A stretch of DNA of 64,000 nucleotides from the IMG/VR virus record IMGVR_UViG_3300042868_003730, positions 83,922 through 147,921 of that record; one strand, given 5' to 3'. The position numbers and the translations under genes were made by a program. Numbering within the stretch: the stretch's first letter is position 1; each line of letters starts with the position of its first letter. Origin of the DNA: a virus. Below the pieces are notes generated by a model, which ran no database searches, was not told where the DNA came from, and was given only the letters and a program-made list of their open reading frames with translations. Positions 60,534 through 64,000 of the stretch are shown here, one piece after another.

Positions 60534-60540
60534 CTAAATA
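60534..60540 (+). promoter_or_regulatory. Late promoter CTAAATA upstream of tRNA-operon leader
   Basis: Same motif as at the structural genes. An ATG lies 5 nt downstream, at the expected start site. Confidence 0.6.
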
Positions 60541-61074: not shown

Positions 61075-61149
61075 GCTCGATTCGTCTATTGGTTAGGACT
61101 CCAGGTTTTCATCCTGGCAAGAGGAGTTCGACTCTCCTATCGAGTACCA
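61075..61149 (+). tRNA. tRNA-Glu(TTC)
   Basis: Cloverleaf, anticodon arm CCAGG-TT-TTC-AT-CCTGG, encoded CCA. Confidence 0.92.
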
Positions 61150-61234
61150 TAATAAGTGTGTGATAAGACGGTGCGTGATTGCCAGTATCGTAACTTCGAG
61201 AGCTCGTCGGTCGAGGGCACACTTATTATGGTAC
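61144..61234 (+). ncRNA. Long-stem structured RNA element 3 (overlaps tRNA-Glu 3' end)
   Basis: Perfect 17-bp inverted repeat GTACCATAATAAGTGTG / CACACTTATTATGGTAC. Confidence 0.65.
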
Positions 61235-61329
61235 CATATTGAAGCGCATTACGACTGACCAACTTCGGGTGTGGTTAGTTCCAGAAATAGGTCGTAATTG
61301 ATTTTACGGGCAGTGTGTTTCAATATGGT
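61233..61329 (+). ncRNA. Long-stem structured RNA element 4
   Basis: ACCATATTGAAGCGCATT...AGTGTGTTTCAATATGGT with G-U pairs. Internal UUCG hairpin. Confidence 0.65.
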
Positions 61330-61421
61330 GTGTTTCCAGTTTCACCAATCTCTCAGTTAAAAGCTGTTGATGAGTAAAGGGTGCGAGAAAATCAAATCCT
61401 TCTGGGCAGAACATGCCGCCA
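61327..61421 (+). ncRNA. Non-tRNA structured RNA with acceptor-like stem ending GCCA
   Basis: GGTGTGTTT pairs with GAACATGCC, followed by GCCA. No cloverleaf. Confidence 0.4.
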
Positions 61422-61512
61422 TATTGAAGTGCATTCAAGCAATGACAGGAGTGGTAGCCCTGTATCTTGCTGGACTAAAGACCTACTACGTCTGAGTGCA
61501 TTTCAATATGGT
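61418..61512 (+). ncRNA. Long-stem structured RNA element 5
   Basis: GCCATATTGAAGTGCATTCA...TGAGTGCATTTCAATATGGT, 20 bp with G-U pairs. Confidence 0.65.
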
Positions 61513-61519
61513 AGACAAC

Positions 61520-61595
61520 GGGACGGTAGCTCAGTTGGTAGAGCAGCGGACTTTTAATCCGTAGGTCGTGGGTTCGAGTCCCGCTCGTCCCACCA
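61520..61595 (+). tRNA. tRNA-Lys(TTT)
   Basis: Canonical 76-nt cloverleaf, GCGGA-CT-TTT-AA-TCCGT, CCA. Confidence 0.95.
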
Positions 61596-61604
61596 AAGAA
61601 TAAT

Positions 61605-61681
61605 GCGGAAGTGACGCAATTGGTAGACGTGCTTGCCTTAGAAGCAAGATTCTGAGAGTTCGAGTCTCTCCTTCCGCACCA
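61605..61681 (+). tRNA. tRNA-Leu(TAG), short variable loop
   Basis: CTTGC-CT-TAG-AA-GCAAG, 77 nt, CCA. Confidence 0.88.
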
Positions 61682-61687
61682 ATTTAT

Positions 61688-61780
61688 GGGTGTTTTGATG
61701 CTATGGCGTGTGCATCCCGAGACTGTAAATCTCGTCCTATTAGGTAAACATTCCTGGTTCGAATCCAGGAACACCCACCA
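61688..61780 (+). tRNA. tRNA-Tyr(GTA), atypical D arm
   Basis: GGGTGTT/AACACCC acceptor, CGAGA-CT-GTA-AA-TCTCG, long variable arm, CCA. Confidence 0.85.
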
Positions 61781-61788
61781 AGATATAT

Positions 61789-61864
61789 TCCTCGATAGCT
61801 CAGTTGGTAGAGTGCCGGACTGTTAATCCGTTGGTCCCTGGTTCGAGCCCAGGTCGAGGAGCCA
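61789..61864 (+). tRNA. tRNA-Asn(GTT)
   Basis: 76-nt cloverleaf, CGGA-CT-GTT-AA-TCCG, GCCA. Confidence 0.93.
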
Positions 61865-61868
61865 TTTA

Positions 61869-61951
61869 GCGAGAGTGGTGGAATGGTAGACACAGCAGAC
61901 TTAAAATCTGCCGCTCAATGCGTACGGGTTCGAGTCCCGTCTCTCGCACCA
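61869..61951 (+). tRNA. tRNA-Leu(TAA)
   Basis: GCAGA-CT-TAA-AA-TCTGC, variable arm, CCA. Confidence 0.93.
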
Positions 61952-61954
61952 AGT

Positions 61955-62035
61955 TTTAGGTGATGACCCAAGCGTAAAGTTCCGGAACTGAGAAGCTAAG
62001 AAGCGTAAGTGTACAGCTGGTTTCGTACCACCTAA
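61955..62035 (+). ncRNA. Structured spacer RNA
   Basis: Closed by TTAGGTG / CACCTAA. Contains AAGCGTAA twice. Confidence 0.4.
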
Positions 62036-62038
62036 TTT

Positions 62039-62115
62039 GCGACCGTAGCTCAGATGGATAGAGCAGCGGATTTCTACTCCGTAGGTCAGCGGTTCGAATC
62101 CGTTCGGTCGCACCA
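62039..62115 (+). tRNA. tRNA-Arg(TCT)
   Basis: GCGGA-TT-TCT-AC-TCCGT, 77 nt, CCA. Confidence 0.93.
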
Positions 62116-62121
62116 GATTTT

Positions 62122-62225
62122 TAAGACACGGATACGTAGCACCTCCCTTTCACGGAGATGTATGCTCGTGGCAATTCTATGTAATTCCGTGACTGACAGG
62201 AAAGAACCCATATACTGTCAACTTA
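62122..62225 (+). ncRNA. Structured spacer RNA (multi-stem)
   Basis: CACGGA/TCCGTG and TGACAG/CTGTCA stems, closed by TAAG/CTTA. Confidence 0.4.
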
Positions 62226-62229
62226 TTTT

Positions 62230-62304
62230 GGATCTAAAGTGTTCATGGACGCACACCTCTCTGTCTAAGAGGAAGAAGGAGATCGTTACTCCTTAGATCC
62301 GCCA
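62230..62304 (+). tRNA. tRNA-Asp(GTC), non-canonical
   Basis: GGATCTA/TAGATCC acceptor plus GCCA. CCTCT-CT-GTC-TA-AGAGG. A8/U14 and T-loop ATCGTTA. Confidence 0.8.
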
Positions 62305-62391
62305 TGATTAGGGTTTTCCTAAGTGAGAGAAAGGAGAATAAGTCTAAGTGTAATCACTGTAATAAAAATGTAATATTTTGAATGTTTTAGA

Positions 62392-62398
62392 CTAAATA
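62392..62398 (+). promoter_or_regulatory. Late promoter CTAAATA upstream of the monooxygenase gene
   Basis: Same motif as at gp13, gp18, gp19 and gp22. Followed by a 5' hairpin and an AAGGAG RBS. Confidence 0.6.
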
Positions 62399-62480
62399 CT
62401 TGTGGTGGTTGTATTAGCAGTTTCAATCCACTACGTCTCAATTTGTTAAACCGACATTAAAGGTCAAGAAGGAGTACTGA

Positions 62481-64000
62481 ATGTCAGAATTAACGCTAAA
62501 CAAAATCACCTCTCAAAAAGGTATCCCAATCGCCGAGGCAACTCGTCGCATCGCTGATCTCGGCTGGCAACCTAGCTATGTCCAGGAAGCATCAACTTTC
62601 CCTACCGACTATAAGATCGGAAAAGCACCTCGTGACCCAATGAAGCAAGTGCTGCGTTCCTACTTCCCAATGCAGGAAGAAAAGGACAGCCGTGTTTATG
62701 GTGCACTTGATGCCGCACTTCGCGGTGATATGTTCCGCAATACCCAGCCACGCTGGATCGAATGGATGAAGTTGTTCCTGGCTATCATCCCTTTCCCAGA
62801 AATTTCGGCTGCTCGCTCGATGGCAATGGTTGCTCGTCTAGCCCCAGGTGAAGAACTTCGCACTGGTTTCACCATGCAAATGGTTGACGAGTTCCGTCAC
62901 TCCACGATTCAGATGAACCTGAAGAAGTGGTATATGGAAAACTACATTGATCCAGCTGGTTTCGATATCACTGAGAAGGCATTCGGTCAATGCTATGCTA
63001 CGACTATTGGTCGTCAATTCGGTGAAGGTTTCCTGACTGGTGACTCGATCACTGCAGCAAACATCTATCTGACTGTTGTTGCTGAGACTGGCTTCACCAA
63101 CACGCTATTCGTTGCTATGCCTTCGGAAGCCGCTCGTAATGGTGACTACGCTTTGTCAACTGTATTCCTGTCGGTTCAATCTGACGAATCGCGACACATT
63201 GGCAATGGACACTCTCTTTTGATGTCCATCGTCAATGACCCAAGCAACCACCTTTTGCTCGAGCGTGATCTACGTTACGCATTCTGGCAAAACCATGCCA
63301 TCGTTGATGCTGCTATCGGTACTATCATTGAGTATGGTACGACTGACCGTGATAAGAACAAGGAGTCCTACTCTGAGTTGTGGCACCGTTGGATCTATGA
63401 GGACTACTATCGCAGCTATATGCTGCCTCTGGAAAAGTATGGTATCAAGATTCACCACGATGATGTTGGTGCTGCTTGGGATCGTATTGTTAAGAAGAAC
63501 TACGTTCACAAGACGGCTCAGTTCTTCTCAGTTGGTTGGCCTGTCAACTTCTGGCGCATCGAAGCCCAGACAGAAAAAGACTTCGAGTGGTTTGAACATA
63601 AGTATCCGGGCTGGTACGCTGAATTCGGCGACTACTGGAAGTGGTACGAAAAGCTGAGCCACCCTGGTCAGACCAACGTGCTGTTCAATCAGGAAGTTGG
63701 CTACTCGTATCCACATCGATGCTGGAGCTGCATGGTTCCTTGCTTGATTCGTGAAGACTTTGTCTATGATGAAGTTGAAGGCGAAGTGTTTACATACTGC
63801 TCGGAAGTTTGCCGTTGGACCCACAAGGTCGCTTTCTCCGGTGAATATGAAGGTCGTGCTACTCCAGCAATGGGTCGCTTTAGCGGTAAGCGCGAGTGGG
63901 AAGAGTGCTATGATGGTTGGGATCTAGCTGATGCTATTAAGGATCTAGGTTTTGTTCGTCCTGATGGCAAGACACTGATTCAGCAGCCTCACCTGCGCTT
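62481..64000 (+). CDS. prmA: Soluble di-iron monooxygenase hydroxylase alpha subunit, group 5 (propane monooxygenase PrmA-like), 3'-truncated by window
   Basis: Not in the ORF track because there is no stop before the window end. Translates to MSELTLNKITSQKGI...KQVLRSYFPMQEEKD...IIPFPEISAARSM...QMVDEFRHSTIQMNLKK...TVVAETGFTNTLFVAMP...SVQSDESRHIGNG...HRCWSCMVPC...YCSEVC...GFVRPDGKTLIQQPHL. Two DExRH di-iron motifs lie 99 residues apart. Confidence 0.93.
   Translation, partial: MSELTLNKITSQKGIPIAEATRRIADLGWQPSYVQEASTFPTDYKIGKAPRDPMKQVLRSYFPMQEEKDSRVYGALDAALRGDMFRNTQPRWIEWMKLFLAIIPFPEISAARSMAMVARLAPGEELRTGFTMQMVDEFRHSTIQMNLKKWYMENYIDPAGFDITEKAFGQCYATTIGRQFGEGFLTGDSITAANIYLTVVAETGFTNTLFVAMPSEAARNGDYALSTVFLSVQSDESRHIGNGHSLLMSIVNDPSNHLLLERDLRYAFWQNHAIVDAAIGTIIEYGTTDRDKNKESYSELWHRWIYEDYYRSYMLPLEKYGIKIHHDDVGAAWDRIVKKNYVHKTAQFFSVGWPVNFWRIEAQTEKDFEWFEHKYPGWYAEFGDYWKWYEKLSHPGQTNVLFNQEVGYSYPHRCWSCMVPCLIREDFVYDEVEGEVFTYCSEVCRWTHKVAFSGEYEGRATPAMGRFSGKREWEECYDGWDLADAIKDLGFVRPDGKTLIQQPHLR

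Follow-up and report, generated by a model that had tools for sequence, protein, structure and literature searches.

How does the gene of one subunit of a bacterial multi-subunit monooxygenase come to stand alone among the tRNA genes of a bacteriophage, and what could it do there? This question is raised by the last 64 kb (positions 83,922-147,921) of the 147,921-bp IMG/VR virus record IMGVR_UViG_3300042868_003730. Near the end of this stretch of 64,000 nucleotides (nt), which is called the window in the following, lies a prmA-like gene, the predicted product of which is the hydroxylase alpha subunit of a soluble di-iron monooxygenase (SDIMO). The best explanation, which we hold to be fairly probable, is that the phage carries a Group V PrmA-like gene that is under selection, that this gene was captured from a bacterium of the Burkholderiales and now sits on a cassette of its own, and that its product joins the hydroxylase of the host.

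The gene itself is intact. On the plus strand, the frame that opens with the ATG at 62481 continues without interruption for the 506 codons that are left in the window, which agrees with the open reading frame (ORF) of more than 500 codons that an earlier note on this DNA had described, and when it is read across the terminal repeat of the record it closes without any frameshift at 554 amino acids (aa). The earlier note had named a frameshift or premature stop beyond the window and a run of host housekeeping genes downstream as findings that would speak against its interpretation; there is no such interruption, and phage tRNA genes follow instead of housekeeping genes. The record belongs to the IMG/VR class with direct terminal repeats and has a rating of 100% complete. 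Its terminal repeat of 127 bp is most likely the mark of a circular or circularly permuted assembly and gives a circle of 147,794 bp. The number 127 is also the largest k-mer size of the SPAdes assembler. The phage genome is T4-like, with PHROGs matches to the major head protein, the portal and the tail sheath, as well as to DNA polymerase, UvsX, an SbcC-like nuclease and DnaB. Its capsid protein is about 60% identical to the capsids of T4-like cyanophages, and a comparison of this protein found no close cultured relative. The prmA gene thus has phage genes to its left and right and lies in the bona fide genome of a T4-like freshwater phage.

Judged by its sequence, the product is an alpha subunit of the PrmA type; once assembled with its partner subunits, it might oxidise propane, acetone or phenol. 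The Pfam family Phenol_Hydrox (PF02332) matches with an E-value of 4.1e-61 and 206.9 bits (cut-off 24.4), and the match covers the four-helix-bundle domain of these ferritin-like di-iron carboxylate proteins, with residues 29-253 corresponding to profile positions 1-229 of 230. The protein also aligns over nearly its full length (residues 19-506, E 2e-59) with the solved structures of MmoX (PDB 6d7k, 1fyz, 1mhy). In this alignment, E107, E137, H140, E202, E236 and H239 fall on the six iron ligands of MmoX, which we take to be E114, E144, H147, E209, E243 and H246, and T206/N207 fall on the active-site Thr/Asn pair, presumably T213/N214 in MmoX numbering. All six ligands are invariant in 92 aligned sequences. 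The motifs that had been read from the DNA alone, FPE (with E107), DEFRH at 62886 (with E137 and H140), VAE (with E202) and DESRH at 63183 (with E236 and H239), are all in place, make up two E...EXXH motifs and are followed by a CWSC...C...C...C arrangement. Two of the cysteines, C414 and C417, are invariant as well, and C421, C440 and C444 are present in 84-90 of the 92 sequences. MmoX belongs to the same fold family and agrees with the phage protein in all ligands and in the active-site Thr/Asn pair, but it is only distantly related in sequence and has no such C-terminal Cys motif. The alpha subunit of phenol hydroxylase contains a zinc site, and by analogy the Cys motif of the phage protein would bind metal. 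With its 554 aa the protein is a full-length alpha subunit, whereas beta subunits have about 360 aa.

The family assignment follows from the relatives of the protein. In a search of 5.8 billion proteins, the close named matches are all proteobacterial, and homologues at 85-88% identity carry the JGI name 'propane monooxygenase large subunit'. The copy of Beijerinckia indica is 80% identical; this bacterium belongs to the same family as Methylocella. The nearest relatives of the phage gene share family and operon architecture with the PrmABCD systems of Gordonia sp. TY-5, Methylocella silvestris BL2 and Rhodococcus (K18223), and for Gordonia TY-5 and Methylocella an assignment of prmABCD to SDIMO Group V has been published (PMC9213486). 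The probable membership of the phage protein in Group V follows from the names of the homologues and from the operon architecture. Pfam and PDB matches, homologue names and the operons of the nearest relatives together bear out the initial identification as a PrmA-type subunit. Group V systems are multi-subunit operons, whereas the phage encodes the alpha subunit alone: its genome has no second PF02332 match and no MmoB/DmpM match, and tblastn for the reductase, the beta subunit, the coupling protein, the amidohydrolase, DUF59, GroEL, alcohol dehydrogenase and a MimR-like regulator gave nothing better than E=0.6.

The closest relatives of the phage gene are found in complete operons. A scan of GTDB species genomes yielded 80 prmA loci, and 78 of these are full operons with prmA and the genes of the reductase, the beta subunit and the coupling protein, mostly continued by genes of an amidohydrolase, a DUF59 protein and GroEL. 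A scan of JGI metagenomes with the N-terminal signature of the clade gave the loci L179, L180, L182 and L183, the PrmA proteins of which are 97.3-97.8% (L179, L180, L183) and 95.5% (L182) identical to that of the phage; where the contigs reach, prmA is followed there by the genes of the reductase, the beta subunit, the coupling protein, GroEL and a sigma-54 activator. The phylogenetic tree nests the phage copy among operonic PrmA proteins, as the sister of L180/L183 (support 95/94) within a 100/100 clade of 554-aa PrmA proteins. The operonic proteins of L180, L183 and L182 also have 554 aa and the same MSELTLNKITSQ N-terminus, and at 97.8% aa identity the operonic protein is identical to that of the phage in residues 1-321 and shares with it the ligands and the Cys motif. 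The genes differ in their setting: the operonic prmA heads an operon with reductase, beta subunit, coupling protein, GroEL and sigma-54 activator genes, whereas the phage gene is alone between tRNAs; the GC content at third codon positions (GC3) is 0.79 in the former and 0.51 in the latter; and the regions of the promoter, the ribosome-binding site and the hairpins are unrelated.

On the contig of L182 (LNFM01000541.1, 322 kb) there is an aceE for which the best named matches, with an identity of about 80%, come from Piscinibacter, Aquabacterium, Rhizobacter, Methylibium and Ideonella, and these aceE relatives suggest an uncultured Sphaerotilaceae-like member of the Burkholderiales as the source bacterium. 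The phage prmA was captured from the prmABCD-groEL operon of such a lineage. An independent clue comes from the transfer-messenger RNA (tmRNA) of the phage, which is of the betaproteobacterial two-piece (permuted) type (RF01850, 112 bits, cut-off 84) and so points to the same host group as the prmA donor. The tag peptides are not the same: this phage has ANDSVYDVALAA, whereas the sibling contig L103 has ANDNAFLMAA. Donor and host are therefore likely betaproteobacterial, that is, Sphaerotilaceae-like Burkholderiales. Another approach to the direction of transfer, the use of shared A/T third positions, was uninformative, with an odds ratio of 2.9 as compared to 2.8 in a bacterial control.

Bacteria also have prmA genes that stand alone. 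Lone 554-aa prmA cassettes without prmBCD are found in Burkholderiales chromosomes in at least three unrelated contexts: between tamB with a tRNA gene and mntP, between ompA with a PA14_33160-family gene and a metallophosphatase gene, and in an island with genes of an integrase, a MerR-type regulator and an FAD oxidoreductase. L004, L019 and L020 have about 150 nt before the gene and about 100 nt after it in common. The lone copies (L004, L019, L020, L093-L098) belong to the same 554-aa lineage, i.e. the 100/100 clade, and are single-gene units like the phage cassette, but unlike the latter they have a bacterial codon usage (GC3 0.75-0.78) and bacterial-type flanks. They are under purifying selection (ratio of non-synonymous to synonymous divergence, omega, 0.04-0.09), and yet they deviate at about 25 positions where conservation elsewhere is 97% or more, including T206S, A201S (VAE to VSE), S237T (DESRH to DETRH), P214V, G221D and C421A. 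In the tree with operonic sequences they form a separate, derived sub-clade. A 96-97% identical protein (P0001) shares its 90% cluster with members that are lone bacterial copies. A placement of the phage copy within the lone bacterial lineage, or as its seed, which came from a first tree, was due to missing taxa, and the copy moved once the operonic 554-aa sequences were added. One of the lone-type genes (L098:1505-2578), located directly downstream of an FAD oxidoreductase gene and an ORF of 82 aa, is truncated at 357 aa and may be a decaying copy.

These lone genes speak for a different interpretation, namely that the phage alpha subunit does not enter the host hydroxylase but is a di-iron protein that works by itself or has partners other than the canonical ones. 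Lone copies persist under selection in unrelated contexts, some of them adjoin genes of an FAD-dependent oxidoreductase and a MerR-type regulator, and no beta subunit or coupling protein was found in two metagenome-assembled genomes (MAGs) with a lone prmA, although the same family search was successful for both alpha and beta in three operon-bearing sister MAGs. The missing partners are suggestive and keep a stand-alone role of the lone alpha subunits open, but the two MAGs comprise only 2.6-2.8 Mb and may be incomplete. The phage copy lies outside the lone sub-clade and groups with the operonic copies, and it retains T206, A201, S237, P214, G221 and other residues that are changed in the lone copies. 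As far as is known, alpha subunits of SDIMOs also need the beta subunit and a chaperonin for folding and solubility. A stand-alone function of the phage protein is for these reasons rather unlikely, and it is likewise unlikely, if anything slightly more so, that the phage protein and the lone bacterial PrmA proteins both work without the canonical partners, for example together with the FAD oxidoreductase or in the handling of oxygen or metal. If true, this would mean a new single-subunit SDIMO branch that moves between phages and Burkholderiales.

In the phage genome, prmA lies on a cassette that is inserted exactly between the genes of tRNA-Asp and tRNA-Ile, with eight tRNA genes upstream of it and seven more within 1.2 kb downstream. 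Five IMG/VR contigs from other metagenomes (L099-L103) encode a DnaB that is 98-99% identical to that of the phage, and these siblings are collinear with the phage, at about 90% nt identity, to the left of prmA as well as to its right, so that both flanks belong to one phage, which speaks against the chimeric junction that had been considered before. As found by blastn of the sibling loci, the cassette is absent from all five. In L100, tRNA-Ile starts 14 nt after tRNA-Asp, and L099 has lost tRNA-Asp, tRNA-Ile and anything that may have been between them through a deletion that joins two GGATC microhomologies. No prmA was found in 80 related phage loci fetched around DnaB, which comprise the five siblings and 75 more distant relatives, and neither these loci nor the phage genome contain a second occurrence of the non-coding flanks of the cassette. 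A scan of IMG/VR for PrmA peptides returned only the record of the window itself, and the phages in GenBank have no copy. The cassette is strain-specific among these phages. The tRNA array in general is a hotspot of strain differences (L099:10540-10700; L100:11226-11755; L103:10170-10740); L100 and L103 have two small ORFs that the phage does not have, one with about 78 aa (MARGYVIQVL...) and another one located between tRNA genes.

The cassette brings its own expression signals. Its AT-rich leader of 176 nt carries the heptamer CTAAATA and the ribosome-binding site AAGGAG, the latter as had been noticed. The heptamer had been described as the motif that precedes the structural genes of this phage. 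Its count in the window (16) is not above chance (10.9 expected), but its placement is not random: in the whole genome 19 of the 34 copies are intergenic, although intergenic DNA makes up only 6.5% of the genome, and 18 of the 34 lie at most 150 nt upstream of a start codon on the same strand (binomial p = 2e-14). CTAAATA thus behaves like a late promoter of this phage, and the copy in front of prmA may be a promoter as well. A scan for sigma-70 promoters upstream of prmA gave nothing above chance. Downstream of the stop codon, folding gives two strong hairpins with a U-run behind them (-40.4 kcal/mol, z = -6.9), and a terminator scan with strict rules found none in this region. One more CTAAATA, at 60534-60540 of the window, directly follows dnaB and heads the tRNA array, as would be expected if the array were transcribed in its entirety from a late-type promoter.

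The comparison with the closest operonic copy shows how strictly the protein has been kept. Between the phage gene and that of L183, the non-synonymous divergence (dN) is 0.018, the synonymous divergence (dS) 1.10 and omega 0.016, with the reservation that dS by NG86 is unreliable when the base composition shifts. In codons 1-321, which cover the whole di-iron domain, there are 121 synonymous and no amino-acid differences (dN 0, dS 1.05, omega 0). Eight substitutions are found only in the phage, all of them in the C-terminal part, and each of the residues occurs elsewhere in operonic PrmA. For comparison, DnaB, UvsX and DNA polymerase of the phage and its siblings differ with dN 0.007-0.035, dS 0.22-0.37 and omega 0.03-0.11. 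As the dS of about 1.1 to the nearest bacterial copy is several times that between the siblings, the gene seems to have been retained for a long time. The time that prmA has spent in an AT-rich genome would then be several times that since the siblings split, and it would follow that either the siblings have lost prmA or the cassette moves between phages.

This pattern also bears on the view that the cassette is a neutral or selfish passenger of a hypervariable tRNA region and of no metabolic benefit. Such a passenger would explain why five siblings at about 90% nt identity do without prmA, why the same region holds differing small ORFs, and why no second phage with prmA was found. It would not be expected to accumulate 121 synonymous changes next to none in the protein, nor to be retained over a dS several times that of the siblings, nor to have its own promoter motif, ribosome-binding site and hairpins, nor to have a codon usage like that of the highly expressed phage genes, and so we regard this view as quite improbable.

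The codon usage of prmA had been noted to resemble that of the phage, and it does so clearly. Its synonymous codons correlate with those of the phage genes for capsid, sheath and portal at r = 0.85, whereas the closest bacterial prmA genes reach only 0.25-0.46 with the same structural genes and the lowest-GC copy tested (L051) 0.71. The GC3 of 0.51 compares with 0.79 in the nearest bacterial copies and with a mean of 0.38 (standard deviation 0.08) in the phage genes, six of 131 of which are above prmA. In sum, the sequence data indicate that prmA is a real gene that has long resided in AT-rich genomes and is under selection.

The long residence could be a sampling artefact if the phage had picked up an AT-rich prmA only recently from an unsampled low-GC bacterium. 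The GC3 of bacterial prmA genes ranges from 0.59 to 0.97 and tracks the GC content of the genome, the host is known only indirectly, and a dS that suffers from shifting base composition is a poor clock. On the other hand, nothing closer than about 97-98% was found among the 5.8 billion proteins, the close copies for which DNA is available all have a GC3 of 0.77-0.79, and a scan of JGI metagenomes for versions of a conserved 14-codon stretch with A or T at the third positions gave no match. The non-coding flanks of the cassette, furthermore, are phage-like and not bacterial. A recent pickup is therefore as doubtful as the passenger. Least of all can it be expected that a bacterial prmA fragment was joined to a phage contig during assembly: the contig does end inside prmA, the GC content of the gene (48.9%) is above the genome mean (41.7%), and the siblings lack it, but such a chimera is highly improbable because no bacterial copy found has the GC3 and the phage-like codon usage of this gene, some phage genes have an even higher GC3, the insertion between two tRNA genes is exact with AT-rich phage-type flanks that contain CTAAATA, ribosome-binding site and hairpins, and the exact 127-bp overlap would suggest a single circular path through prmA.

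For a selected phage gene captured from the Burkholderiales, the following role can be proposed. The CTAAATA motif would serve for the transcription of the gene in the late phase of infection, and the phage PrmA would assemble with the beta subunit of the host, aided by a GroEL-like chaperonin of the host. The assembled enzyme would then work with the reductase and the coupling protein of the host, and the cell could go on oxidising propane, acetone or small substrates of a similar kind, or even do so at a higher rate, while host expression is shut down. Phage PmoC, AmoC and PsbA are thought to act likewise. By the same analogy, an alpha subunit that may be prone to damage would be replenished during infection.

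Several points weigh against this role. A limiting or especially damage-prone alpha subunit is assumed for SDIMOs by analogy, and expression from a late promoter would come at an unusual time if the gene is to sustain metabolism. The lone prmA MAGs without beta subunit and coupling protein suggest that a role of the protein may not need the canonical partners, and the host has been deduced from sequences. Only a single phage genome carries prmA, which is absent from the five siblings and from the rest of IMG/VR. Of the traits that are typical for auxiliary metabolic genes (AMGs), the bacterial operonic origin and the purifying selection (omega 0.016) are found; a recurrence in several independent phages, as is known for AMGs of the psbA, pmoC and amoC type, is not.

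In its organization the gene can best be compared with the lone monooxygenase genes of other phages. Stand-alone pmoC has been found in large freshwater phages, and stand-alone bacterial copies of pmoC have been noted as well (PMC7674155); amoC is likewise carried by phages (bioRxiv 10.64898/2026.06.18.733297). As with prmA, these are lone subunits of a multi-subunit monooxygenase of the host, near to the host sequence and in freshwater phages. The difference is in the enzymes: PmoC and AmoC are membrane subunits of copper enzymes, whereas PrmA is the catalytic subunit of a soluble di-iron enzyme and thus of an unrelated class, and pmoC recurs in many phages, whereas prmA was found in one. Among the di-iron enzymes, soluble methane monooxygenase has a gamma subunit that prm operons do not have. 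The earlier note knew of no phage with a subunit of a soluble alkane monooxygenase, and in line with this a search of 8.4 million papers and preprints found no earlier report of an SDIMO gene in a phage, while phage pmoC and amoC were found. The single-subunit AMG is already known; what has not been known from phages is this class of enzyme and this group of hosts.

Two other candidates for related genes in viruses were dismissed. Two records labelled 'Acinetobacter phage MD-2021a' (CAKLQH020000032.1, CAKLQF020000006.1) contain tmoA, the gene of the toluene-4-monooxygenase alpha subunit, but with 23% identity to the phage PrmA it is unrelated. L092, an IMG/VR match to the DNA pattern of the N-terminus, is a chance match inside a putative polymerase ORF of an RNA virus; the contig (L092:2-5287) is open in a single frame throughout, and the product, with more than 1,750 aa, resembles a large polymerase of RNA viruses. 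In the phage itself, a minus-strand block at the start of the contig and outside the window (L003:1121-6111) encodes a 686-aa protein resembling a membrane-anchored nucleotide cyclase, a secreted protein of 341 aa, a repeat-rich protein of 239 aa, and proteins of 257 aa and 145 aa that resemble CsgG and CsgF. The coordinates of the features are given in Table 1.

Table 1. Position of the prmA-like gene, its cassette and associated features. Positions are those of the window unless a contig is named.
Feature	Position	Strand	Remarks
Upstream tRNA array (Glu, Lys, Leu, Tyr, Asn, Leu, Arg, Asp)	61075..62304	+	ARAGORN
tRNA-Asp, left boundary of the prmA cassette	62230-62304	+	
prmA cassette, about 1.9 kb	62305..64000, on to about contig position 346	+	sibling blastn, junction reading
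CTAAATA, late-promoter-like motif	62392..62398	+	89 nt upstream of the ATG
AAGGAG ribosome-binding site	62469..62474	+	6-nt spacer to the ATG
prmA-like gene, predicted SDIMO hydroxylase alpha subunit	62481..64000	+	codons 1-506 in the window
prmA-like gene, end	contig positions 126-272	+	codons 507-554 and stop
Coding region of the predicted di-iron centre	62799..63200	+	E107; E137/H140; E202 with T206/N207; E236/H239
Coding region of the Cys motif	63720..63815	+	C414, C417, C421, C440, C444
Terminal direct repeat, 127 bp	63874..64000	.	identical to contig 1-127; inside prmA
Two-piece tmRNA	L003:7444-7804 (contig start, outside the window); sibling L103:11876-12347		RF01850
Lone prmA	L004:3246-4910; L019:361-2025; L020:6001-7665; L093:10001-11665; L095:2535-4199		bacterial contigs

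The discovery of psbA, pmoC and amoC in phages has changed the view of how viruses affect photosynthesis, methane oxidation and nitrification. The phage prmA would extend this pattern of single-subunit AMGs to the SDIMOs and to freshwater hosts of the Burkholderiales. SDIMOs oxidise propane, other short alkanes and acetone, and they co-metabolise pollutants such as 1,4-dioxane. With its catalytic domain unchanged in the protein despite 121 synonymous changes, the gene gives an unusually clean sign that the phage needs a working protein. The case also exposes a bacterial lineage of lone alpha subunits with altered active-site residues, and it raises the concrete question whether an alpha subunit made by a phage can enter the alpha2-beta2 hydroxylase of its host.

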